Source: Escherichia phage AV125
DNA length: 64,000 bases
Sequence record: OR352955.1
Reading direction: 5' to 3' (one strand)
The position numbers and the translations under genes were made by a program. Positions 1,587-61,014 of the stretch are shown in pieces. The notes below the pieces were generated by a model that saw only the letters and a list, made by a program, of their open reading frames with translations, was not told the origin of the DNA and did no database searches. Within the stretch, counting starts at the first letter, position 1; every line of letters starts with the position of its first letter.

Positions 1587-3152
1587 GTGTCAACAGGAAA
1601 AAGAACGTACACTAAAAAGTCAGAATACTGGGACAAAGGTGCTGCAAATAAAGCTGCTCTCTCTCCAACAAAAGAGGCAGAGAAAGAGAAAACGTTACTC
1701 CTGTCACCTGAAATAGGAACGATCGGATTAAACTCAATCAAAGCATTTACGAATTTCATGCAACCTTATGAGACTCGTTTCCCAGAATGTATTCGCACTT
1801 TTAAAGAGATGGGTGAAGACCCTGATGTAGCTACTGCTCTTGACGCTACATATATCTTTGTAGATAGAGCATTCTTTGATTTCAAGATAAAATACAATGT
1901 AAACTCGGCAAAGTCAAGAAAAGCTGCTAAGTTTATTGATTACATGTTACGCAATATGCAAGCCCCTCTACGTCAATATGTTAGATCACTTTTGACATAT
2001 AAGCAATATGGTTTTGCATTCGCAGAGAAAGTTTATGAGTTGGATGAAGATCCTAAAAGTCCTTACTTTGGGTATTGGCGATTGACCAAACTGGCTTTTA
2101 GACCACAAGACACTCTTCACATGGCTCAACCTTTTACATATTCGGCAGACGGACGTTCTATTCTATCTGTTAACCAGAATATCACCAATACGATGTTAGC
2201 TCCAGGTAATACAACTTTAGAAACTGGTATTAAAGAAATTCCTTTCAGTAAAGTTTTATTTGTTGGTAGCAACATTACAGAGAATAACCCACTAGGAGTT
2301 AGTCCGCTTTTAGCTGTATATCGTAGCTGGCGTGAAAAATCTCTTATTCAGGAATTTGAGGTTATTGGGGTATCTAAAGATTTAGGTGGTATGCCAGTTC
2401 TTAAGGTTCCAAGTGACATTCTAAACAGAGCATCTTTAGATCCTGCTGGGGATGAAGCACAATCTCTTCGAGTTCTCCAAGCCAACATCGCTAACCTGCA
2501 CTCTGGTGAGCAAGCCTACATGGTATTGCCTTCAGACGTTTATGAAGGCACAGTGATGCGTCAATACGATCTTGTATTCCAAGGTGTTGATGGCACGGGT
2601 AAACAGTTTGACACTCAAGCACTAATCAAACAACGCAAGCTAGATATTTATAACCGCTTTGGTGCGGGTGTGTTGATTATGGGTGATGGTGATGCAGGAA
2701 GTTTTGCGCTTTCTGACAACAAACAAACACTATTGTCTCATTTTATTGAGCGAGATGTAGATATTGTTGTAGAAGCTATAAACTCTCAACTGATCCCTCA
2801 AACACTACGACTAAACAATATCTTCCTTTCTGATGAAGATATGCCTAAGTTTGTCAGTGGTGAAATGGGTGATCCTGATATTGAAGTAAATGCTAAAGCT
2901 ATTCAGCAGTTGGTAGCCTCTGGTGCAATACCTTTAACCCCAGAAGTTATTAACGAGTTCCTTGAAAAAATTGGTTTTGAATATCGTATCCCTGACGATA
3001 TTGTTGCCAATAAAGAGAAATTCTTTGAATTCATGGATAACTATATGCCTGACAAAACTTCACGATCAGGAGATGGTTTAGCTACAGCGGGAACTGGAAC
3101 GTCTGATACTGTTTCTGCTTTAGATCCTTCAGCACAAAACCTGTCGAATTAA
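1587..3152 (+). CDS. Portal protein (putative)
   Basis: 521-aa ORF immediately after terminase; GTG start with GGAGG RBS; acidic C-terminus; position and size typical of portals. Confidence 0.5.
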   Translation: MSTGKRTYTKKSEYWDKGAANKAALSPTKEAEKEKTLLLSPEIGTIGLNSIKAFTNFMQPYETRFPECIRTFKEMGEDPDVATALDATYIFVDRAFFDFKIKYNVNSAKSRKAAKFIDYMLRNMQAPLRQYVRSLLTYKQYGFAFAEKVYELDEDPKSPYFGYWRLTKLAFRPQDTLHMAQPFTYSADGRSILSVNQNITNTMLAPGNTTLETGIKEIPFSKVLFVGSNITENNPLGVSPLLAVYRSWREKSLIQEFEVIGVSKDLGGMPVLKVPSDILNRASLDPAGDEAQSLRVLQANIANLHSGEQAYMVLPSDVYEGTVMRQYDLVFQGVDGTGKQFDTQALIKQRKLDIYNRFGAGVLIMGDGDAGSFALSDNKQTLLSHFIERDVDIVVEAINSQLIPQTLRLNNIFLSDEDMPKFVSGEMGDPDIEVNAKAIQQLVASGAIPLTPEVINEFLEKIGFEYRIPDDIVANKEKFFEFMDNYMPDKTSRSGDGLATAGTGTSDTVSALDPSAQNLSN

Positions 3153-3180
3153 AAATATTTAATATTTTTTAATTTTTCTA

Positions 3181-3209
3181 TTGACAAAACAACAAATATC
3201 CTGTAGACT
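3181..3209 (+). promoter_or_regulatory. sigma70-like promoter (TTGACA-17-TAGACT) with AT-rich upstream element
   Basis: -35 TTGACA 3181-3186, 17-nt spacer, -10 TAGACT 3204-3209; AT-rich run 3150-3180; followed by RBS and ATG at 3246. Confidence 0.45.
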
Positions 3210-3727: not shown

Positions 3728-4843
3728 GTGGCAAATACATATTTAACTAACGTAGACTTTTCTGGAAAAGCTACGGAAGAGTCACTAGGTGCTCATATTG
3801 CTTACACTTTTGATTTTCAAGGTGGAGCGGCATCTGGTTATAATACCCCCCTTTTATTTAAGTCAGACGGATCTCCAGACATAACTTTTGAAAAGTTAGA
3901 AGCTCTCACTAAAATGGGAGAAGATGTTACAGAGTTACGTAAAAGCTATATTCAACAAGTGATGGATCGCATTTCTGAAAAAGTGCGTGAAAAATTTGAA
4001 GCTGGTTGGGATTGGGTTTACGTTATTGATGCTGACTTCGATGCGAACGTTGCAATTTTCTGTTCAGATAACGGTATGTTCTCTGTTGGCTTTAAAGTTG
4101 ACGGACTGAATGTTGAAGTTGAAGAGGTTGCTAAACCTGTTGTTCGTGTTACTGATTATCAAGTTGTTGATGGTGATGTAATGATCTCCATTGATTTCTT
4201 TGAGGACGTTTTAGACGATGCTTTGAGTAATCTCGTTAAGAGTTCCTTGAAACAAAGTCAAGTTAAAGATTATTTAGTGAAAGCTCACGCTAAAGCTAAT
4301 ACAAACTCTGTGGATGCAGAGGCTAACCCCGCAGGTGATAAATCTGCAAACACAACTGGAATCAATAAAGGAGAAACCCCTTTGGAAAATATCAACAAAG
4401 AAGAATTCCTGAAATCTGCTGAATTCCAAGAACTGATGAAAGCACAGATCGCTGAAGCTGTAGAAAAAGCAGCCGCAGATGCACGTGCAGCCGCAGAACT
4501 TGAAGCACAGGAAAAAATCGCTAAGGCAGAACAGGAAGCAGAAGAACTTCGTAAAGCTGAACAAGCTCGTATCGAAGAAGAATATACAACTGTTGTTAAA
4601 TCCTATTCTTTCGTAGAAGAAGACAAAGTTGAAGCTCTCGTTAAATATCTGGTAGACAATAAAGATATCGCTGAAACTATCGTCAAAGCATTCGAAAAAG
4701 CACGTGCAGAAGTGGACGCAGTTAAGAAAGAATTTGGAACAGAACGTGGTGTTGATGTGATCAATACTCAACCTGTAGCTAAATCTTCTTCTGAACTGAT
4801 TAGTCAGAAAGCTGCTGAACTTAAAAAAGCCCAGAAACAATAA
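3728..4843 (+). CDS. Scaffolding protein-like (C-terminal Ala/Glu/Lys-rich coiled coil)
   Basis: GTG start; C-terminal half is a heptad-like acidic/basic helix (AEAVEKAAADARAAAELEAQEKIAKAEQEAEELRKAEQ); sits between portal and capsid genes. Confidence 0.45.
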   Translation: MANTYLTNVDFSGKATEESLGAHIAYTFDFQGGAASGYNTPLLFKSDGSPDITFEKLEALTKMGEDVTELRKSYIQQVMDRISEKVREKFEAGWDWVYVIDADFDANVAIFCSDNGMFSVGFKVDGLNVEVEEVAKPVVRVTDYQVVDGDVMISIDFFEDVLDDALSNLVKSSLKQSQVKDYLVKAHAKANTNSVDAEANPAGDKSANTTGINKGETPLENINKEEFLKSAEFQELMKAQIAEAVEKAAADARAAAELEAQEKIAKAEQEAEELRKAEQARIEEEYTTVVKSYSFVEEDKVEALVKYLVDNKDIAETIVKAFEKARAEVDAVKKEFGTERGVDVINTQPVAKSSSELISQKAAELKKAQKQ

Positions 4844-4862
4844 TCTTAGGAGATTAAATTAA

Positions 4863-5261
4863 ATGGCTAAAGGAATTACTTTATCTAACTCTCGCCAGGA
4901 ATTCGGACACCTGGTTCTGGGTGGAGTGTTTAGCTCTGACCTTGGACACTGTGTACGTGAAGTTAACCTGGTTAAAACAGCAACCATGAAAATTGGTTCT
5001 ATCCTGAAAGCTGACAACACTGAAGCTGCTAAAGCTGAAGCTGCCGATGCTGCTAAAGTTCTGATTTGGACTGATGCTCTGTTCGGTATTGACGATGTAG
5101 CAGTAGGTGACACTTTCACCGCAGTTGTTGGCGTACGTGATCTTACTCTGAACCGCTTTGCAGTATACTACAAAGATGGCTCCCTGGTAGATGACGCTGG
5201 CGTAGCAGCACTGGAAACACATGATCTGAAACTGACCGAAAAAGTCGTTTTCACTTCTTAA
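4863..5261 (+). CDS. Head decoration protein-like
   Basis: 132-aa ORF immediately upstream of the major capsid gene with a strong RBS (TAGGAGA); size and position as for decoration proteins paired with E-type capsid proteins. Confidence 0.4.
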   Translation: MAKGITLSNSRQEFGHLVLGGVFSSDLGHCVREVNLVKTATMKIGSILKADNTEAAKAEAADAAKVLIWTDALFGIDDVAVGDTFTAVVGVRDLTLNRFAVYYKDGSLVDDAGVAALETHDLKLTEKVVFTS

Positions 5262-51780: not shown

Positions 51781-52383
51781 TTATGGACATTCATACCATT
51801 CTTTTTTACCACCGAAGGCCATCACCACATCGCAAATATCCAGACCAGCTTTACCTACACCATATGCTTTCAGCTTCCATTCTCCATCTTCACGAACCAG
51901 GGAAGCCACGTGGCAGATTGTGTTGCCAGCTACTTCAGGAGCCAGGAAGTCAAAATCCAGAATTTCCACATTGCGCTCGGAGTCGAAGATTTTAAGCATA
52001 CCTTCAGAAGCATGACCAAAACGTTTCAGACCTGTATCATCATCAATGGTCAGAACAAAGGCAATCTCTTGTGCATCAGGAGAGATTTTAGCCAGAGTAA
52101 TATCAATCTGCTCCATGCTGCCAGTTCCATCACGAACATCGTCACCAGCGAAGGTAGAACGTTCAGGATCAAACTTGTTAGCATAGCAAACCAGATGACG
52201 TGCAGACAGCATTTCAGGATTGCCAGCGGCATTGTGACGACAAACCAGTGCACTTACATCCAGATCCAGTTTAGAATCAGATTTCCAAGAGAATTCCAGA
52301 CGCAGTTCTTTCAGAGCCGGAGCAACTTTCTTCAGGGAAATTTTTTCGCTAGAACCTTTTTTCAGGGAAATTTTATCAGTCAT
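51781..52383 (-). CDS. terD: TerD-domain protein (tellurite-resistance TerD family)
   Basis: N-terminal ISLKK repeats; core TFAGDDVRDGTGSMEQIDITLAKISPDAQEIAFVLTIDD matches the TerD GDxxxG..GDDE..I...L pattern; about 200 aa. Confidence 0.6.
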   Translation of the reverse strand: MTDKISLKKGSSEKISLKKVAPALKELRLEFSWKSDSKLDLDVSALVCRHNAAGNPEMLSARHLVCYANKFDPERSTFAGDDVRDGTGSMEQIDITLAKISPDAQEIAFVLTIDDDTGLKRFGHASEGMLKIFDSERNVEILDFDFLAPEVAGNTICHVASLVREDGEWKLKAYGVGKAGLDICDVVMAFGGKKEWYECP

Positions 52384-52398
52384 CTTTTGTCTCCTCTA

Positions 52399-52668
52399 TT
52401 ATTTAAGTGTAATACCAGTTACAGTCAATTCTACTTCCAAAAGCTTAGATGTGTTTTGGATTGATACTAATTGTGCATGATGGTTTAGTTCTACAGCAGA
52501 ATAATCATTTTCCCCATCATCTACTTTTAAATAAACAATGATTTCACTAAGGTCTAAACCATTTTCGTCAAATGCATTTTCATAGACGAAAGTATCTCCT
52601 ACATCCAAATCTTTGATGGTAAGGCATCGTTTATTTACTTTTTGCTCATCAATTTCGAAGTTTAACAC
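52399..52668 (-). CDS. Small protein, paralog B of a two-member family (precedes TerD)
   Basis: KDLDVGDTFVYENAFDENGLD...LEVELTVTGITLK aligns with the 53690 ORF (EDLGIGATFMYYDAYEDAGLD...VEVDLEVTNITLK). Confidence 0.35.
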   Translation of the reverse strand: MLNFEIDEQKVNKRCLTIKDLDVGDTFVYENAFDENGLDLSEIIVYLKVDDGENDYSAVELNHHAQLVSIQNTSKLLEVELTVTGITLK

Positions 52669-52897
52669 TTCTTCCTCCTAATGTTATCTCCGGTTTGTAT
52701 ATACGAAGAATTATAACATTTTCATTTTCTTTGTCAACCCATTCTTCATAATCAGGCCATACATGAATCTCTACTCTACTTACAATATCTTCCATTCGCA
52801 CAGTCCCAATGAAATACTCTTTGAGACTGCGCATAATGAAAGCTTCTCTCTCGCGCCAATAATTTTCTATGACTTGAGAGGCAAGCTCGTCGATCAT
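52649..52897 (-). CDS. Hypothetical small protein
   Basis: 82-aa ORF between the vWA gene and paralog B; overlapping coupled starts. Confidence 0.3.
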   Translation of the reverse strand: MIDELASQVIENYWREREAFIMRSLKEYFIGTVRMEDIVSRVEIHVWPDYEEWVDKENENVIILRIYKPEITLGGRSVKLRN

Positions 52898-53688
52898 TTT
52901 TTAGCACCTACTTTAACAACCCACTCTCCGAACTCTTCAGATAAGAGTTTGTCATAAAGCTCTGAATCTGTCAAGTCTAAATCTTTAATGCCAATAAAAC
53001 CAACATTATCATAAGCATTTGCCAGTTCTTTCAGGAAGCCAAACTTCTCATTACCAACGCCAACCATGAACCAATAAATAGGTTTATTCTTATTCTCTTC
53101 AATAAGACGACGAACAGCACTAGGATCACCATTCTCACCATCCGTCTGGAAGAATACAACACCAGGGGTAACGTCAGCACCTGGTTCAGACACAGCTACA
53201 ACCTTTTCACGCTCTACAGATACTGTTTCAGTTTTACCAAGCAGACGATTAAAGAAGCCTTTCTTTGGAGCCTCCTCTTGTACCACTTGTTTAGTGGTAA
53301 TATATTTGGTAACAGTGCCAAAATACTCATCGTAGATATCTGCCATTACAGGGGCGTAATTTGTTCCACCTCCGATACGAACATTGCGCATACATTTACC
53401 AACATAGTCATCGTAAACGTCTGCTGTTGCTGGAGTAAGCTCTTGGGAACTCGTATTGAAGGCCCACATATCAATTTGTTGATTATCGTCGAACAGCATA
53501 CCAAAAGGAAGCAGTTTACCTACAAAATCACTCACTACCCCACTAGAATATAGACCATGCATACTACCAGAAATATCTAGAGCACATGCTACACGAAGAA
53601 CAATCTTACCTTCATTCAGGTTCTTATTCTTTTTCAGAGAGAAAGCAAGGTTTTCTTGACGTTTTTTCAGGCTGATTTTCTCGGACAT
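52894..53688 (-). CDS. von Willebrand factor A (vWA) domain protein with TerD-like N-terminal leader
   Basis: MIDAS motif DISGSM in LRVACALDISGSMHG; N-terminus MSEKISLKKRQENLAFSLKK parallels the TerD N-terminus MTDKISLKKGSSEKISLKK. Confidence 0.55.
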   Translation of the reverse strand: MSEKISLKKRQENLAFSLKKNKNLNEGKIVLRVACALDISGSMHGLYSSGVVSDFVGKLLPFGMLFDDNQQIDMWAFNTSSQELTPATADVYDDYVGKCMRNVRIGGGTNYAPVMADIYDEYFGTVTKYITTKQVVQEEAPKKGFFNRLLGKTETVSVEREKVVAVSEPGADVTPGVVFFQTDGENGDPSAVRRLIEENKNKPIYWFMVGVGNEKFGFLKELANAYDNVGFIGIKDLDLTDSELYDKLLSEEFGEWVVKVGAKK

Positions 53689-53689
53689 A

Positions 53690-53986
53690 TTATTTCTCCT
53701 TCTTAAGTGTAATATTGGTAACTTCTAAATCTACTTCCACCATATTTGTATCTGGCGGGATGCAATGAGTATAGCCTCGTTGTGCTAGTGATCCATTAAT
53801 ACAGATCGCACTGTTTGTGGAATTTTTAATGAACACCAAGTTACGGTAGGTATCCAACCCTGCGTCTTCATAGGCATCATAATACATGAATGTGGCCCCT
53901 ATGCCAAGATCTTCGAAAGCAATAGGTAAATCCTGACACTTTTCTTCTTGAATATTGAATCTAAACACGCATACCTCCTCTACCAA
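53690..53986 (-). CDS. Small protein, paralog A (precedes the vWA gene)
   Basis: See paralog B; 98 aa. Confidence 0.35.
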   Translation of the reverse strand: MVEEVCVFRFNIQEEKCQDLPIAFEDLGIGATFMYYDAYEDAGLDTYRNLVFIKNSTNSAICINGSLAQRGYTHCIPPDTNMVEVDLEVTNITLKKEK

Positions 53987-54524
53987 TTTTGAAGCCCAAA
54001 TCGTAAGCTTCTTTAGTGATCTTTTGCAACTCGCTTATAGGAAGTGTTACAAGAGGATCATCTTCTTCAATTTCCATCTTGTCATCTTCTGTTTCAATGA
54101 GAGTATTATGCACTTTATGATAAGGGTTGTCAACACGTTTAAACTTATTCTTTTCTGTGCTGAAGAAACAATCTGGATCTTCTTCACCATCACCCCAACC
54201 TTGATTAGGATCTCTGTCAGATTGTTCTGTAGGGATCTCACCTGTAAAGTACTCTTCCAGCACCATAGCGATGCCGTCCCTTGGATTTGAGGAATGCATC
54301 AAATCACAAACCTTACTCCAATCCATAGCCCAGTCGAACCGTTCACGAACGCCATTTTCATCCTCTTTTCCAGAGAAAACACAACCATAACTATCATAGT
54401 TGCCATACATCTCTTCAATAACAACACCGTCCTTCAAAAGAAAGAGGTAGCAAGGTGATCCGTCGAAAGAAGTAGAAAGGGCAGCTTTGCCCGATTCTTT
54501 GCACAAAAAGCTAAAACAACCCAT
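53961..54524 (-). CDS. Hypothetical acidic protein
   Basis: 187-aa ORF rich in Asp/Glu (EEDPDCFF, ETEDDKMEIEEDDP). Confidence 0.3.
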   Translation of the reverse strand: MGCFSFLCKESGKAALSTSFDGSPCYLFLLKDGVVIEEMYGNYDSYGCVFSGKEDENGVRERFDWAMDWSKVCDLMHSSNPRDGIAMVLEEYFTGEIPTEQSDRDPNQGWGDGEEDPDCFFSTEKNKFKRVDNPYHKVHNTLIETEDDKMEIEEDDPLVTLPISELQKITKEAYDLGFKIGRGGMRV

Positions 54525-54727
54525 TACAAACCCTCCTTCAGATTATCAAGAGCTACAGTGGTTTCACAAAATTCTCCATAAGCTTTATGATGTTCCAGAA
54601 AAGCTTCGGGTCCACCCCAATCATTGTCTTGTGTATTCCAGCCATCAATAAAAGCATCTTCAATGATTGTGATCAGTTCTTGTCGGGTTAACTGGATAAT
54701 ATTAGGGTCGTTATCGTAGTTAAACAT
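54524..54727 (-). CDS. Hypothetical small acidic protein
   Basis: 67-aa ORF; ATG with GAGGAGGAAG RBS. Confidence 0.3.
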   Translation of the reverse strand: MFNYDNDPNIIQLTRQELITIIEDAFIDGWNTQDNDWGGPEAFLEHHKAYGEFCETTVALDNLKEGL

Positions 54728-54893
54728 CCTCTTCCTCCTCTAAAATATGGAACCCGTAATTACAATAGTCCTGAAAGGTTTCGTGTGCAAGATCTTCTAT
54801 ATCCTCTTGAGACATATCATCTTCAATTTCGATATCCACAACCTCATTGCATCCACACCAAGCAGTTTCAATATTCACTCGTAATATTTTCAT
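54720..54893 (-). CDS. Hypothetical small acidic protein (57 aa; not in ORF track)
   Basis: Manual translation MKILRVNIETAWCGCNEVVDIEIEDDMSQEDIEDLAHETFQDYCNYGFHILEEEEDV; ATG overlaps the upstream stop (TAATG) and follows a GGAGGAGGAG RBS. Confidence 0.25.
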   Translation of the reverse strand: MKILRVNIETAWCGCNEVVDIEIEDDMSQEDIEDLAHETFQDYCNYGFHILEEEEDV

Positions 54894-55090
54894 TACTCCT
54901 CCTCCTCATTGAAGTCAATATCTGCAAGGAGTTCGAATTTACGGAAGTTACGACAACCTTCATAAATATAACAATCACGACAAACTGCTAGAACACTTGG
55001 GGGATATATGCCTCCCATCGGCGCGAATCGTTTTTCGTCATCATAACGGACACCAATGTCCTCATCAATTATATAGATACGGATTCTCAT
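54893..55090 (-). CDS. Hypothetical small protein with acidic C-terminus
   Basis: 65-aa ORF ending ...DIDFNEEEE; start overlaps the TelA stop. Confidence 0.3.
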   Translation of the reverse strand: MRIRIYIIDEDIGVRYDDEKRFAPMGGIYPPSVLAVCRDCYIYEGCRNFRKFELLADIDFNEEEE

Positions 55091-56199
55091 TTACCAAGCC
55101 CTCGTTTCACAGCAGCTACCATCCCGTCTTCCAAAGATTGAACTTCATTAATATAATCAACACGAGCAGCACGGGCTTCCGTATTGATGCGGTTAGTTTC
55201 TTCCAACATCTTAACCAAGTTTTCCTGATCGTGACGCAGAGTTTCAATATCCAACACTTGACGGTTAGCCAGTGCTGCTGCTTCGATCTGATTCTGTGTG
55301 GCAAGATCGCTACCCAGTTTAATTGCCAGGTTAAATTCATCAAGAACGTTATTCTGCGACTCTGCTGCTTTCATTTGACGTAAGCTCTCGATATACATTG
55401 AGAAGTTAGCAGAGTAAGCAGGAATAACATTATTTACTATGTTACGCGCAGATCGCATTAAGCTTGCAGAAACTTTTTGCATACCTTGTACACGCGGTCC
55501 CATTTGGACACACAGTAGGCGCAATGCTTTTAAATCTGCAATACGAATCTCCAGAAGATCCAAAGTATCTCGGATCACTTGTCGCTGTTCTACTGCATCT
55601 TCTGGAAGAGCAGCCAAAGCTTGTTCTTCTTTTTCATAGGTTGCTGTTAGAAGCTGCATATCTCGGTTCAAACTTGCAGCATATTGTCCAATAGCTTGAT
55701 GTAGCTTTTCAAGATATACCAAGGAATCTTCTTCTTTGCGAATATCCATTTGAAGGTTTTTTACCAACTCTTCAATACGGTTATTAACATTATCAAACTC
55801 CCCAAACAGATCTTCTTTCATACCCATAACTTTTTTAATGAGTTTAGTAATACCCTTGCTTTGTTTAATAGAGTTTGGATCAAGTTGTTTTGCCTGTTTA
55901 ATCAAAGCTGTGAGTCGTTCACTCATCTGATCGCCTTGATTACTACGTTGATGTTTTAATACCTCGGCATTCAAGGAACGCAAGGTTGTTCCTGCCTCTG
56001 CCCCAATCTCTTCGATCTCCTGTCGGGTCATAGAAGGCAAAACTGGAACTTCTTGCGGTGCCGCTGGTGCATAAACAGGACTGGCATCTAACACGCTTGG
56101 AGCGAATACAGATTTACTTGCATCTGTTGTTGCAGCAAATACGCTCATTTCAGGTTTCTTCTGACAGCCAGTAGCTGCTTTTAAAAATGGACTTGTCAT
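55087..56199 (-). CDS. telA: TelA-like toxic anion resistance family protein
   Basis: 370 aa, largely helical with long heptad-like segments; size and composition as for TelA/KlaA; lies in a cluster with TerD, vWA and TerC homologs. Confidence 0.5.
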   Translation of the reverse strand: MTSPFLKAATGCQKKPEMSVFAATTDASKSVFAPSVLDASPVYAPAAPQEVPVLPSMTRQEIEEIGAEAGTTLRSLNAEVLKHQRSNQGDQMSERLTALIKQAKQLDPNSIKQSKGITKLIKKVMGMKEDLFGEFDNVNNRIEELVKNLQMDIRKEEDSLVYLEKLHQAIGQYAASLNRDMQLLTATYEKEEQALAALPEDAVEQRQVIRDTLDLLEIRIADLKALRLLCVQMGPRVQGMQKVSASLMRSARNIVNNVIPAYSANFSMYIESLRQMKAAESQNNVLDEFNLAIKLGSDLATQNQIEAAALANRQVLDIETLRHDQENLVKMLEETNRINTEARAARVDYINEVQSLEDGMVAAVKRGLGK

Positions 56200-56786
56200 T
56201 CTTCATTCTCCTCTTCTGCATCTCTTATATATGGTGAAACACCGTACTCTTTAGCTACTTTAACCCAATCGTCCCATTTATACAACCATAATTTTCCTTC
56301 GGTCCCTTCTTTATCTGATTTCAACCACATATTAGGTTGCTTACCTGGGTACATGCGATTAGGTTTACGATTATAACCTCTAACACATCTTGTCGCAAAC
56401 CTATCTACCAGAACAAGAACATATTTATATTCGTGGTTCAACGGCTCTTTGGAAGTGGCTTTAGGATTAGCCCCTAACTCTGCTGCCAGTTTTTGCCAAT
56501 GAGCACCGTGTCTACTAAACTTACCCATACAACCATCAATAGCATGAGCAATTTCGTGCTTCATTGTATCCACGATCATATCTCTTGTAGAGTTCTTATG
56601 CAAGTGCCAATTTACAACAACAATTTTATCTCGGTAGTTGCACCAACCGAAAGAGTTATTCACTTTGTTTCTAACACAAGCTTTATATCCTGCTTCACGT
56701 AACATGTTGTAGTAAACAGGAAAATCTTCTTTTATTTCCTGCATCACTTCCCACCACAAGAGTTGCAAGTCTCTCTCGGTATACAT
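56196..56786 (-). CDS. SprT-like zinc metalloprotease domain protein
   Basis: HExxH motif in MKHEIAHAIDGCMGKFSRHGAHWQKLAAELG; acidic C-terminal tail. Confidence 0.5.
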   Translation of the reverse strand: MYTERDLQLLWWEVMQEIKEDFPVYYNMLREAGYKACVRNKVNNSFGWCNYRDKIVVVNWHLHKNSTRDMIVDTMKHEIAHAIDGCMGKFSRHGAHWQKLAAELGANPKATSKEPLNHEYKYVLVLVDRFATRCVRGYNRKPNRMYPGKQPNMWLKSDKEGTEGKLWLYKWDDWVKVAKEYGVSPYIRDAEEENEE

Positions 56787-56789
56787 AAC

Positions 56790-57383
56790 TTACACCTTAA
56801 AAGTGAAATGCGTGGTCGTGGTTTCAAAATCAGGACCAGATAAACGTGCACTGAAATCTGAAATATTTGTAATTAAAAAGCTTTTATGCATACCTAACAC
56901 AGCTACGCTTTCAATATCTTCTACTAACATTTCAATCATGTTAGAAACATGGCTGAACGTAGAGTTTTGTTTTTTGATGGTGTAGAAAGAAAGATTCCCA
57001 CCTGCTGTATAAGATACCTCTTCAAAATCTTTAATGGTATATTGTGTGCCATCAGTAAAGAAAATGGTAGCTTTATTAGTAGCACGTTTCTTGTTTTTTG
57101 GTCCTTTTTTACGTTTACTGCGAGTAGGCAAACCGTTTGGGAACACCATAGCTACAAATTCTTCAGCAGAAACCTCCTTACCGAAATCATAACCATAAGA
57201 AACAGCGTCTATAAACTCGTCATCTTCATTTTTAAAATAATGGAAATAGGGCCAATTTGAAAGATTATCAAGCATCTTATGCTCGTCCACAGCAGAGAAT
57301 GTATCCCTCAAAGCGCGTGTGATTTGCAAAGCATTAGGCAACCTTTTAACACCTACGATGGAAGTACGAATAGAAATTGTCAT
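56790..57383 (-). CDS. Hypothetical protein
   Basis: 197-aa ORF with a basic stretch (RSKRKKGPKNKKRATNK). Confidence 0.3.
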   Translation of the reverse strand: MTISIRTSIVGVKRLPNALQITRALRDTFSAVDEHKMLDNLSNWPYFHYFKNEDDEFIDAVSYGYDFGKEVSAEEFVAMVFPNGLPTRSKRKKGPKNKKRATNKATIFFTDGTQYTIKDFEEVSYTAGGNLSFYTIKKQNSTFSHVSNMIEMLVEDIESVAVLGMHKSFLITNISDFSARLSGPDFETTTTHFTFKV

Positions 57384-57397
57384 TGTTTTTCTCCTTA

Positions 57398-57835
57398 TTA
57401 ACGTCGCTTGCTACGAGATGAACTCTTTTTACTTAAAGGGCTATTGTAAGATTTACGAGTTGTATAGCTACTATTTGTTTTAAAAGTTTGTCTCGGCTTT
57501 TCATAAGTTTTTATCTCTTGTTTAGGCTTACTATAAAAATTAGTTTTCGGTTTAGGTGTATTATAATGCTTATTAATAATCGTTCTGTTATCGTTATAAT
57601 CCCCACTGCTACGATTACTACCGCCACTCATCATATGCCCTAACAACATACCTGTAGCAAACTCACCAACACCGCTACTACTAGAACCGCCACCATTGTT
57701 GATAATAGTTGTATCTCCGTCAGATCCTTGTTGAGCGTATTGTTGAGGAGGTTGTTGGTATTGTGCAGGATTTGTTTCATCCTCGCAAGCTGTTAAAAAG
57801 ATACAACCAATTAAAATCAGGGCTAGTTTTTTCAT
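57398..57835 (-). CDS. Lipoprotein (lipobox LTAC), Gly/Ser-rich
   Basis: Track ORF trimmed to the ATG at 57835; signal peptide MKKLALILIGCIFLTAC with lipobox Cys; overlaps the 3' end of the upstream TM-protein gene in another frame. Confidence 0.4.
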   Translation of the reverse strand: MKKLALILIGCIFLTACEDETNPAQYQQPPQQYAQQGSDGDTTIINNGGGSSSSGVGEFATGMLLGHMMSGGSNRSSGDYNDNRTIINKHYNTPKPKTNFYSKPKQEIKTYEKPRQTFKTNSSYTTRKSYNSPLSKKSSSRSKRR

Positions 57836-58022
57836 ATTTGCTTTCCTCGTTTTGGCTATTAATACATCTGTGTTTGAAATCTCCAGAGAAGCAATAAAGT
57901 TGCTCTCCATCTCGGTATAAACTCACTTTACTGCCGTTGATTACGCTTGTCAATACAAAAATTACAACAAACAACCCTATTGCAAAACAAATATTTTCAA
58001 ACACAACCAACAAGTATTTCAT
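57777..58022 (-). CDS. Small membrane protein with N-terminal TM helix
   Basis: 81-aa ORF; hydrophobic segment LVVFENICFAIGLFVVIFVLTSVI; ATG with GAGGT RBS. Confidence 0.3.
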   Translation of the reverse strand: MKYLLVVFENICFAIGLFVVIFVLTSVINGSKVSLYRDGEQLYCFSGDFKHRCINSQNEESKYEKTSPDFNWLYLFNSLRG

Positions 58023-58369
58023 TTTAAAAATACCTCATCATCAGTTTCATTATCCCAGAAGAACAAGTCCCAACCATTCGGATCATTCCATTTAGCTGCT
58101 GGAGAAGTCCATATTTGCTCGATATCAATATTCAAAACTTCACCGTTTCGTTTTGAAACAGCTTTAGTTAATTCCCAACGGGATACAGGCTCCACTTCCC
58201 CTGAACCACTCCCACAACAAGCTACCACATTAGGAGGCAAATTAATTGGATCTTTGGTCACGATCATAACGCTTACCCCAGGGTAAACTTTTGAAAGATA
58301 ATCTAAAACGTAATCCACATCACCAGATAAATCCCAAACAAGTTCTTGAATTTCATCAAAATTACTCAT
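58019..58369 (-). CDS. Hypothetical protein
   Basis: 116-aa ORF; start after a terminator hairpin. Confidence 0.3.
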   Translation of the reverse strand: MSNFDEIQELVWDLSGDVDYVLDYLSKVYPGVSVMIVTKDPINLPPNVVACCGSGSGEVEPVSRWELTKAVSKRNGEVLNIDIEQIWTSPAAKWNDPNGWDLFFWDNETDDEVFLK

Positions 58370-58387
58370 AAGTCTCTCCTATAAAAT

Positions 58388-58405
58388 AGCCTCCCGAAGG
58401 AGGCT
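58388..58405 (-). terminator. Terminator hairpin after TerC gene
   Basis: Stem AGCCTCC / GGAGGCT with loop CGAA, followed on the minus strand by ATTTTAT. Confidence 0.5.
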
Positions 58406-58411
58406 CATTTA

Positions 58412-59386
58412 TTAAACAGTAGCTTCTTCTTTTTCAGGGAAGATAAAGCTTGCAATAACACCAAGAGATAATGTGCCTAGAACAATCATCAGACTTACGT
58501 TAGGGGAAATATCATGCGGGAGGAATGACCACTTGGCATGAAGTGTTTCACCGAACGGGTGATACATAAGTTTAGCACCAACAAACACCAGAACCACAGC
58601 AACAGCTTTCTCTAAGTGAACCAGATATTTCACAGCTACACTTAACACAAAGAAAAGTGCACGTAAACCAAGAACAGCCATCAGCATTGCAGAATAAACT
58701 AGCAGAGGTTCTTGTGTCACACCGATCACAGCCGGAACTGAATCAAAAGAGAAGACAATATCTGTAAGCTCAATAACAAACACACAAAGAAGAGCAGGAG
58801 TTGCATATTTAATACCATTCTTAATGGTGATGAACTTTTCACCATCCAGTGCATTGTGCACAGGCAGAACTTTACCTACTAAACGAACAGCCCAATGTTT
58901 AGAGTAATCAATATCCTCTTCTTCGTCACCACCTTTGATGATAGCCACGGCAGACCAAGCTACAATCAAACCGAACAACACTTGGACCGACCAATGAAGG
59001 TTAAACAAAGCGGTCCCTGCTGCAACAAAAATACCTCGGAAGACAATGGCTCCTGCAATCCCCCAAAGTAGAATCTTATGTTGGAGATGTGTGCTCTTAA
59101 TTCCAAAGCTTGCAAAAATTGCCATGAACACCATTAGGTTATCTACAGAAAGACTCTTTTCCAACACATAGCCACTTAGGAAAAGCGCGGCAAACTCTTT
59201 ACCATGTTCTACCCAAATGAATGCGTAATACCCTAAAGCTAAAGCAATCCAAAAAACAGACCAAAGCAAAGCAGATTTAATTCCAATTTCTTTATTCTCT
59301 TTATGACCAAAGAAATCGATACCAATAGACAATGCTAAAATACCAACTAAAACAACTACATCAATAATTGGGAAACCGAGTTGCAT
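58412..59386 (-). CDS. terC: TerC-family integral membrane protein
   Basis: 324 aa with multiple hydrophobic helices throughout; size and topology consistent with the TerC family; in the Ter-like cluster. Confidence 0.45.
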   Translation of the reverse strand: MQLGFPIIDVVVLVGILALSIGIDFFGHKENKEIGIKSALLWSVFWIALALGYYAFIWVEHGKEFAALFLSGYVLEKSLSVDNLMVFMAIFASFGIKSTHLQHKILLWGIAGAIVFRGIFVAAGTALFNLHWSVQVLFGLIVAWSAVAIIKGGDEEEDIDYSKHWAVRLVGKVLPVHNALDGEKFITIKNGIKYATPALLCVFVIELTDIVFSFDSVPAVIGVTQEPLLVYSAMLMAVLGLRALFFVLSVAVKYLVHLEKAVAVVLVFVGAKLMYHPFGETLHAKWSFLPHDISPNVSLMIVLGTLSLGVIASFIFPEKEEATV

Positions 59387-59403
59387 TCTTTTCTCCTCTC
59401 TTT

Positions 59404-59422
59404 GCGGGGAACTATTCCCCGC
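59404..59422 (-). other. GC-rich hairpin in intergenic region (possible terminator or processing site)
   Basis: Stem GCGGGGA / TCCCCGC with a 5-nt loop, between the small membrane protein gene and the TerC RBS; no clear U-tract. Confidence 0.3.
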
Positions 59423-59465
59423 TTCATGTGATATATCTTACTCTTTTTAAGAACTATGTCAACAC

Positions 59466-59687
59466 TTATTTTGTTGAATGAGAGGAAAAGATTCCTCGTA
59501 ATACCGCCAAAATAAACGAAACACAAACCACGGTCCAGAAGGTTACTGGGACAGTGATATCTGCATGACCCATAACTTCAGCAACATAGTTGTAAGCCAG
59601 CAACAGTAACCAAGCTGGAATCAAACTAAGCATAAAAGCAATAACAAAAAAGCTTACCACTGCAACAATACCTGCAAAAACACCCAT
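59466..59687 (-). CDS. Small membrane protein (two TM helices)
   Basis: 73-aa ORF with two hydrophobic segments; immediately upstream of TerC. Confidence 0.3.
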   Translation of the reverse strand: MGVFAGIVAVVSFFVIAFMLSLIPAWLLLLAYNYVAEVMGHADITVPVTFWTVVCVSFILAVLRGIFSSHSTK

Positions 59688-59699
59688 ACTAATCTCCTC

Positions 59700-60173
59700 T
59701 TAAAGTTTATAAATAGTCACATCGTGGCCTGTTTTTACTAAAGTTTCTTCAATCATCACTTGGATGATAGCCCAATTACCTCCGGCATGTCCCGCTCCAA
59801 TCATAGGTAAACCGATCTTACATTTTTGGTCACGGAGAAGCAAATCATTAGCCATAGCTATTAGTGCATCGTAAAGTGCATCATAGTCCAACTGACGACC
59901 TTTAGCATTGTATCCGTAACGGTATTGCCCGTATAGATTATATACCAAAGGGTCTGATTGTTCGTCTGGCACCCCTAAACTAAAAGAACCTAACTTACTT
60001 TGATCACCAGCCATTGTGTCTAAATCTGCCGCATATGCATAAGGGAATGCTCGTTTAATTTGCGGAGCAATTCCTGCTCCCATATTACACATACAATTGC
60101 AACAATGAGCAATAACAGTTACTTCACCTGCTTTAGCGGCATCAATAAGATTACCTGTTTTCATTTTAAGCAT
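59700..60173 (-). CDS. Macro-domain-like protein (putative ADP-ribose/nucleotide-binding)
   Basis: Track ORF trimmed to the ATG at 60173 after AAGGAG. Segments VIAHCCNCMCNMGAGIAPQIKRAF and KIGLPMIGAGHAGGNW parallel the macro-domain NAAN..GGGV..AI and AFPAISTGVYG blocks (divergent). Confidence 0.3.
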   Translation of the reverse strand: MLKMKTGNLIDAAKAGEVTVIAHCCNCMCNMGAGIAPQIKRAFPYAYAADLDTMAGDQSKLGSFSLGVPDEQSDPLVYNLYGQYRYGYNAKGRQLDYDALYDALIAMANDLLLRDQKCKIGLPMIGAGHAGGNWAIIQVMIEETLVKTGHDVTIYKL

Positions 60174-60186
60174 TTTTAGCTCCTTA

Positions 60187-61014
60187 TTACAGAATGTGTT
60201 GTTTTGTGTAACGATCCAAGAATTCAAAGTTTTCAGCATACTTTGAAATTCGGTTGTAACCTTCTCCCAAACATCCGAAGAAAAGTTGCTCTACATAGTA
60301 GTGTGGCAATTGGCTAAGAATGATTTTGAAGTCTTCGTGATTTTGGCCCATAAGATACTTAATAGGACGAACAAGACACTGTGCATCACGTTCTTCATTA
60401 ATCATTTTAACAAACGCTTCTGGTGTATTGATGTAGTTAAAATTCAGTTTAGCTTCAGTATCTGCTTGATTACCTTCATATTTTGCAAAATACAAGAAGT
60501 AAACATCATTTTTAACTTGATTTTCATCAAGAATCTCAATCAGTTTGTCTTCATGAGTTCCGGTGATATTTACATCATCAATGAACACAAGCTTCTTATC
60601 ACCCCAGAATTCTTTGTTGCAGTAGAATGTATCCCCATCAATAAGTTTCTTACGACTAGCTTTATCCAAGAAACCATAATCGTTGATATAGCTAACTTTA
60701 CGATGAATAATATCCAGTTCTGCTGAACGACCTTGATCATATTGTGCTTGCAACATATTAAAGTAATTAATAAAATGATCTGTCATCATTGTTGCAGCAT
60801 TGTGCACATGGTTATAAGGAGAAGGGATGATAACAAATTGTTCCCCAATATGTTTCATTGCCACTTGAGCAAAAAACTGAAGTGCCAATTCTTTACCCAT
60901 ACGACGCGCAGCTTGGTTACTACCAAATTTCAATTTTGAATAGTCTTTGATATCAAAAGTAGCAGTTTCCAGGTCATCAAATTTATTTGCAAAAATTTGA
61001 GTTTGATTACGCAT
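60187..61014 (-). CDS. Phosphoribosyltransferase (type I PRTase fold)
   Basis: PRPP-binding motif KLVFIDDVNITGTHEDK (hhhhDDhhtTGxT). Confidence 0.55.
   Translation of the reverse strand: MRNQTQIFANKFDDLETATFDIKDYSKLKFGSNQAARRMGKELALQFFAQVAMKHIGEQFVIIPSPYNHVHNAATMMTDHFINYFNMLQAQYDQGRSAELDIIHRKVSYINDYGFLDKASRKKLIDGDTFYCNKEFWGDKKLVFIDDVNITGTHEDKLIEILDENQVKNDVYFLYFAKYEGNQADTEAKLNFNYINTPEAFVKMINEERDAQCLVRPIKYLMGQNHEDFKIILSQLPHYYVEQLFFGCLGEGYNRISKYAENFEFLDRYTKQHIL

Follow-up and report, generated by a model that had tools for sequence, protein, structure and literature searches.

Four small acidic genes in a variable slot of a Ter-like operon in a Phapecoctavirus genome

What is encoded by the run of short, highly acidic open reading frames (ORFs) that lies between telA and a von Willebrand factor A (vWA) gene in Escherichia phage AV125 (sequence record OR352955.1)? 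In the 64,000-nucleotide (nt) stretch of DNA analysed here (the window), the run is composed of four genuine genes from four unrelated families, which occupy a variable, recombination-prone slot within a Ter-like operon. The four consecutive ORFs of 187, 67, 57 and 65 amino acids (aa) that an initial annotation had listed are all present on the minus strand, and a possible fifth that it had allowed for is probably the adjoining 92-aa gene. The window belongs to a Phapecoctavirus (phAPEC8-like) genome of roughly 150 kb; positions 53600-55400 are 99.9% identical to Escherichia phage vB_EcoM_ESCO25, and about 55 further genomes of Phapecoctavirus (phAPEC8-like, Stephanstirmvirinae) match them at 97-99%. 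Every gene in the telA-vWA part of the window is on the minus strand, and the slot, its boundaries and its parts are as follows (D+E, fraction of Asp plus Glu; pI, isoelectric point).

55087-56199, minus strand: telA, upstream boundary of the slot (PF05816, E 2e-33; phrog_5890).
54893-55090, minus strand: 65-aa gene (phrog_24000), first after telA; D+E 0.231, net charge -6, pI 4.5, C-terminal NEEEE.
54720-54893, minus strand: 57-aa gene (likely DUF7167; phrog_1997); D+E 0.316, net charge -16.
54524-54727, minus strand: 67-aa gene (phrog_14200); D+E 0.209, net charge -11, pI 4.05.
53961-54524, minus strand: 187-aa gene (phrog_14928), whole; D+E 0.209, net charge -19.
54111-54524, minus strand: N-terminal domain of the 187-aa gene, residues 1-138, a conserved acidic globular domain.
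53961-54110, minus strand: C-terminal part of the 187-aa gene, residues 139-187 plus stop, lineage-specific.
53690-53968, minus strand: 92-aa gene (phrog_11278), GTG start, 8-nt overlap with the stop of the 187-aa gene.
52894-53688, minus strand: vWA-TerF-like gene, downstream boundary of the slot (PF10138, E 1.6e-37).
About 54150-54900, no strand: recombination patch, from 100-nt sliding identity against ECO340P1.

ORFs this short in an AT-rich phage genome might be chance open frames or decaying remnants without functional expression, and a literature search turned up no proteomic or ribosome-profiling data. Conservation in relatives, which the initial annotation had named as a check, speaks otherwise. 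The window was compared with ECO340P1, phiWec179, phiWec190, PsgM04F and phi92, and in none of these five diverged relatives is the reading frame of a homologue broken. With synonymous divergence (dS) of 0.4-2.3, the ratio of nonsynonymous to synonymous divergence (dN/dS, Nei-Gojobori) is 0.09-0.23 for the 65-aa gene, 0.07-0.11 for the 57-aa gene, 0.17-0.40 for the 67-aa gene and 0.10-0.15 for the 187-aa gene, synonymous changes being far in excess. These values are comparable to those of the 92-aa neighbour (0.15-0.29) and vWA (0.15) and above those of telA (0.03-0.09), and with dN/dS of 0.07-0.40 throughout, all four are therefore protein-coding genes under purifying selection. Each ORF also has homologues in 70-176 phage records and in other phage genera or metagenomes, each is preceded by a correctly spaced Shine-Dalgarno sequence, and structure predictions are confident for two of the four proteins. 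Spurious ORFs are scarcely credible on these grounds, and the selection analysis effectively refutes them.

More than 70 phage records already list the four genes, as hypothetical proteins, and each has a PHROG of its own. This includes the 57-aa ORF, which the initial annotation had presented as unannotated: it is indeed absent from the ORF track, probably because a mechanical ORF list has a default minimum of 60 aa, but public records carry it as ESCO25_00162 and HOR21_gp218.

The enrichment in Asp and Glu first remarked on was confirmed. D+E makes up 21-32% of the four proteins, their net charges run from -6 to -19 and their pI from 4.05 to 4.53, and among the 73 annotated genes of the ESCO25 loci they rank 5th (65 aa), 1st (57 aa), 7th (67 aa) and 8th (187 aa) in D+E. 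The background was computed on the ESCO25 loci themselves, because collinearity with ESCO25 coordinates fails over the window's first 47 kb; the background's median D+E is 0.131 and the median pI 5.1. The four genes form the sole run of four consecutive genes with D+E of at least 0.20 among the 73, with a permutation p of about 0.008 when all genes are shuffled and 0.03 when minus-strand genes only are used. Acidity is also kept within the families, with net charges of -7 to -18 for the 57-aa family, -5 to -15 for the 67-aa family and a median of -11 for the N-terminal domain of the 187-aa family.

The genes are tightly joined. Stop and start meet in ATGA between telA and the 65-aa gene and in TAATG at the 65/57 and 67/187 junctions, and the 57/67 and 187/92 junctions are overlaps of 8 nt. 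Ribosome-binding sites of the GGAGG type are present (GAGGAGGAGGAG, GAGGAGGAAGAGG and AAGGAGGG), although the 65-aa ORF has the weaker ACGAGGG, so that the overlapping junctions described at the outset stand and the strong ribosome-binding sites stand for all but this gene. A search for terminators inside the block found none that was convincing, and judging by their junctions the four genes are probably translationally coupled. Two of the proteins end in Glu-rich tails, NEEEE in the 65-aa protein (54896-54907, minus strand) and EEEEDV in the 57-aa protein (54728-54740, minus strand). The GAGGAGGAG (GAG) repeats that encode these tails double as the Shine-Dalgarno sequence of the next gene, and part of the acidity is therefore dual-coded.

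Five gene sets were seen between telA and vWA among the relatives compared, given here as the lengths in aa of successive products.

Window: 65-57-67-187-92.
phi92: 68-66-187-89; no DUF7167 gene.
FKP3: 66-71-72-53; no 187-aa gene.
05F01: 64-239-90; TelA just 40% identical, the 64-aa product is the 67-aa homologue, and the 239-aa product is unrelated to the 187-aa protein.
phiWec179: 68-56-132-90; no 187-aa gene, and the 132-aa protein has the 67-aa domain at its C-terminus.

No alternative occupant of the slot in these relatives has a known function. Alleles are exchanged as well as genes. ECO340P1 is 97-100% identical to the window on the flanks and 68-89% identical at about 54150-54900, and its values inside this patch match those of the phiWec190 lineage at each step along the alignment. 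By gene, identity is 99% for TelA and 100% for both the 65-aa protein and vWA, vs 95% for the 57-aa, 73% for the 67-aa and 83% for the 187-aa protein. The drop to phiWec190-lineage values shows that the 67- and 187-aa alleles were replaced.

A rearrangement of another kind concerns the 67-aa domain: in one Phapecoctavirus lineage it makes up the C-terminal half of a 132-aa protein, a domain fusion or fission within the slot. The coding sequence lies at about 4476-4874 in the phiWec179 locus (L014), about 4467-4865 in the PsgM04F locus (L016) and about 2791-3189 in the phiWec190 locus (L017), and its N-terminal extension of about 70 residues has no Pfam match and no PHROG of its own.

The three smaller proteins differ in how widely they are distributed. 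The 65-aa family is genus-restricted, found in 70 Phapecoctavirus records with telA adjacent in every one; phi92 gp177 (31% identity) and a protein of FKP3 are weak positional homologues. The 67-aa family carries a conserved motif, LTRQELITI(I/M)EDAFIDGW, and has homologues across the Stephanstirmvirinae (phi92 gp176, 50%; 05F01 gene_121, 55%) and in Erwinia phage Hena1 (Vequintavirinae), where the gene is flanked by those for a Sir2-like protein and DNA ligase, and the 10 kb shown contain no telA.

The 57-aa protein aligns to residues 4-60 of the 60-residue model of DUF7167 (PF23768) with E 7.5e-5, yet its 23.2 bits fall 1.2 bits under the curated gathering threshold of 24.4. Its relatives do better: 12 of 15 match PF23768 (best E 2e-12), and the P0130 protein, 84% identical to it, carries a precomputed PF23768 match. 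By transitive homology the 57-aa protein is likely a DUF7167 member. Its predicted shape is a beta-hairpin, a helix and an acidic tail, and the conserved residues of the family are mainly hydrophobic or aromatic. DUF7167 homologues turn up in Salmonella Jerseyvirus, where repressor/helicase genes lie on one side and the DNA polymerase gene on the other; in a lambdoid phage, as one of the small ORFs flanked by replication gene O and rusA; in Stx2a-converting phages; and in the early regions of Enterococcus Herelleviridae. DUF7167 is a family scattered in accessory regions of unrelated phages, and membership explains no mechanism because the family itself has no known function. A zinc finger was considered for the 57- and 65-aa proteins and rejected, as their Cys residues are not conserved in relatives.

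The 187-aa protein matches phrog_14928 over its full length (E 7e-125) and shares its N-terminal ~137 residues with this uncharacterised metagenomic family, in which 312 metagenomic homologues are 50-65% identical over that part and most are 125-145 aa long. The homologues mostly end near residue 140, and the extensions beyond it are mutually unrelated; in the window, the 49-residue C-terminal part (D+E 0.245) consists of an acidic linker at 141-160, with a predicted local distance difference test score (pLDDT) of 52-54, and a helix at 163-181. The N-terminal domain is modelled with pLDDT above 90 over most of its length. Across 120 homologues, 113 start with MGC and 37 positions of the domain are at least 95% conserved, including C3 (99%), C8 (99%) and H136 (98%), with C73 at 93%; other Cys and His residues are not conserved. 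Conservation of C3, C8, C73 and H136 supplies four candidate ligands for a structural Cys3-His zinc site, and the domain is most likely metal-binding through these residues, or catalytic, as far as its sequence indicates.

This domain is found almost only in phage contigs. It was met in just three contigs of metagenome-assembled genomes among 185,579 bacterial and archaeal species genomes, and among cultured phages the family occurs in Phapecoctavirus and Justusliebigvirus only. In six metagenome contexts its homologues lie in replication or nucleotide-metabolism surroundings, next to genes for DNA polymerase A, ribonucleotide reductase, DnaB, a methylase and a kinase. Searches of the family profile against PDB and Pfam found nothing, and a fold search with the protein found no structural neighbour. 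A link to RNA repair (polynucleotide kinase, RNA ligase), seen on one metagenome contig with a 187-aa homologue (L004), was dropped as it did not recur. At 1-2414 that contig has tandem genes of 63-92 aa with DUF7205, neighboured by RlaP, polynucleotide-kinase-like, RNA-ligase-like and Metallophos genes, and from its gene content it looks like an RNA-repair type module of an uncultured phage.

Could the small proteins instead be auxiliary subunits or regulators that work with TelA, vWA and TerD, serving for instance as adaptors in the sub-membrane assembly that has been proposed? The operon around the slot has the order PRTase, Macro, TerC, SprT-like, TelA, slot, vWA-TerF, TerD. Ter-like operons are known from jumbo and related phages, and a role in excluding superinfecting phages has been proposed for them (PMC7824862). 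The four genes lie inside an operon that holds the components of that system (TerD, TerC, TelA, vWA-TerF and PRTase; PMC7824862), are apparently co-expressed with them and share overlapping junctions with the genes of the operon; the 67- and 92-aa families stay between telA and vWA even in 05F01 with its distant TelA, and in Phapecoctavirus, phi92 and FKP3 the gene next after telA resembles the 65-aa gene. Elsewhere, however, the 57-, 67- and 187-aa families do not travel with Ter genes, and slot content varies between phages that share those genes: FKP3, phiWec179 and 05F01 keep telA and vWA and yet have no 187-aa gene. The Hena1 homologue of the 67-aa protein has no telA nearby, DUF7167 is present in Jerseyviruses of about 40 kb and in lambdoid phages whose regions examined have no Ter genes, and none of the six metagenome contexts of 187-aa homologues includes a neighbour with a Ter Pfam family. 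Clustering of neighbours at 54 loci (48 from IMG/VR and these six) gave no conserved neighbour of known function for the 187-aa family. By tblastn among cultured phages, the 65-, 67- and 187-aa families occur only in Stephanstirmvirinae (plus Erwinia phages for the 67-aa family), and telA-carrying jumbo phages are absent from the matches. Co-occurrence with TerD, TelA, TerC and vWA across lineages was thus not found for the 57-, 67- and 187-aa families, and the 65-aa family, known only beside telA in one genus, is uninformative on this point. None of the three families found outside the genus depends on Ter genes. A role as Ter subunits is unlikely on this evidence, and the four products would rather be operon passengers. 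The 92-aa gene is a better candidate partner of Ter or vWA than the four ORFs, because its position upstream of vWA is kept in phi92 (gp174, 63% identity) and 05F01 (gene_123, 39%); of the five slot layouts, the four checked for it (all except FKP3) have it immediately before vWA.

T7 Ocr and Gp5.9, ArdA, PBS2 Ugi and phi29 p56 are small acidic inhibitors or DNA mimics, and one or more of the window proteins, above all the 57-aa protein, might likewise block DNA-binding host enzymes such as restriction-modification systems, RecBCD or uracil-DNA glycosylase. The 57-aa protein carries a net charge of -16 over 57 residues, it is similar in size to Gp5.9 and p56, and the scatter of DUF7167 over phages of Gram-negative and Gram-positive hosts fits a target common to many bacteria. 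The likeness is one of composition and position only, in that all are small, negative and encoded among non-structural genes. Charge fits, but no sequence, profile or fold similarity to Ocr, Gp5.9, ArdA, Ugi or p56 was detected, and the 57-aa family differs from DNA mimics in that its conserved residues are mainly hydrophobic or aromatic. The 187-aa protein is a poor fit because its N-terminal domain is strongly conserved (37 positions), with conserved Cys and His and a metal-binding or catalytic look. DNA mimicry, which the initial annotation had offered as one possible mode of action, is quite improbable for the small proteins, a weak version of the broader proposal, and suits the 187-aa protein poorly.

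The same searches gave no lead to other known functions. For the four proteins, Pfam-A (E at most 0.1) returned no family of known function and no Ocr or ArdA, with DUF7167 and a weak AnkX_ins match for the 57-aa protein only; NCBIfam returned nothing of known function, no PADLOC-DB model matched at E of at most 0.1, and a PDB sequence search at E of at most 10 gave no match of note. Literature searches on DUF7167, the MGCFSF motif and Phapecoctavirus/Justusliebigvirus found nothing on these genes. Atd1, the sole anti-defence gene that the literature ties to Phapecoctavirus, is a MazG-like pyrophosphatase, and was rejected as a match for the four ORFs since it is an unrelated enzyme.

The picture that we favour, at roughly an even chance of being right, is that the small proteins are binding or inhibitory factors and that the domain of the 187-aa protein binds a metal or is catalytic. 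The 65-, 57- and 67-aa proteins would be soluble, cytoplasmic, stoichiometric binders of a host or phage macromolecule, with their conserved negative charge as the interaction surface, and may serve as accessory inhibitors or modulators in host takeover or counter-defence. In the 57-aa protein, a small beta-beta-alpha core would display the conserved F..YCNYG patch of DUF7167. The 187-aa protein would be different in kind, its conserved N-terminal domain acting on something common to many hosts; in other phages this domain sits in replication and nucleotide-metabolism modules.

Several points weigh against this picture. Acidity is general among the proteins of at most 120 aa in this phage (median D+E 0.19, pI 4.5), and only the 57-aa ORF is an outlier among them. 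Because small proteins are generally acidic and part of the charge is a by-product of GAG-rich ribosome-binding sites, charge alone is weak evidence of a mimic or inhibitor. The searches above linked none of the proteins to a characterised inhibitor, anti-defence protein or enzyme and found no structural neighbour, and the metal site is proposed from sequence conservation only. As the genes are co-transcribed and probably co-translated with Ter genes, and the 65- and 67-aa genes keep their position across the subfamily, a Ter role is also conceivable, above all for these two.

With these points counted, the initial suggestion that the ORFs are candidate anti-defence or host-takeover factors is plausible: they are selected genes in a variable slot, with an allele swap, conserved acidity and, for DUF7167, a place in the accessory regions of other phages, although no homology to known anti-defence proteins was detected. 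A bolder joint reading, which we consider rather unlikely, is that the 187-aa N-terminal domain would be a new phage-specific fold with a functional N-terminal Gly-Cys and a Cys3-His centre, acting on a target that many bacterial hosts share, either as an enzyme or as a tight-binding inhibitor; that DUF7167 would be an acidic inhibitor of broad host range, directed at a bacterial protein of defence or of DNA metabolism; and that the slot would be a counter-defence hotspot of the Stephanstirmvirinae.

The slot is part of a nearly complete Ter-like operon that spans 51781-61014 on the minus strand and is followed by a SleB-like cell-wall hydrolase. Its other genes are these.

60187-61014, minus strand: ComF-like phosphoribosyltransferase (PRTase; PF15610).
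59700-60173, minus strand: Macro-domain protein (PF01661; 23 bits, cut-off 22); relatives have it annotated as 'phosphatase'.
58412-59386, minus strand: TerC.
56196-56786, minus strand: SprT-like metallopeptidase, upstream of TelA.
52399-52668, minus strand: 89-aa ORF (phrog_11278), preceded by an 82-aa ORF on the same strand, both between vWA and TerD.
51781-52383, minus strand: TerD.

A HAD phosphoesterase has been described at the place in the operon that is held here by the Macro domain (PMC7824862), a substitution that may merit a separate look. Also inside the operon, at 57398-57910 (minus strand), is a Ser/Asn/Gly-rich basic protein (pI about 9.8; 145-170 aa, according to which start codon is used), which had no match in a Pfam search and whose counterpart in phi92, gp180, is annotated with a signal peptide. 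The small, acidic 92- and 89-aa genes both belong to phrog_11278 and flank vWA; their paralogy was judged from their matches to phi92 gp174 (63% and 37%). A perfect sigma-70 consensus (TTGACA, 16-nt spacer, TATAAT and an upstream TG; 12 of 12 matches) lies at 52710-52737 on the minus strand, within the 82-aa ORF and upstream of the 89-aa and TerD genes, and could be an internal promoter.

Records near-identical to E. coli Phapecoctavirus over the region include 'Campylobacter phage B15' (98.5%), 'Klebsiella phage ZCKP1' (97.8%) and 'Dompiswa phage TSP7_1' (98.1%); the 65-aa protein has an exact copy in 'Acinetobacter phage vB_AbaM_ABPW7', and the TelA of 'Pseudomonas phage PsgM04F' is 90% identical. 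The host labels of some such records look doubtful.

As a feature, the run is ordinary, a string of already catalogued hypothetical phage genes that makes up a phage accessory-gene cassette. What stands out most in it is the conserved MGC-start domain of the 187-aa protein, a domain for which no relative of known function or structure was found. Phages of Phapecoctavirus and Justusliebigvirus are often candidates for therapy and biocontrol, and a compact, swap-prone slot offers a short list of genes and a cheap target for knock-out and expression screens against panels of defence systems. The 187-aa family is the best single target among them: it is almost confined to phage contigs, retains 50-65% identity across very different contigs, and its MGC start and conserved Cys and His residues suggest a chemistry that can be tested.

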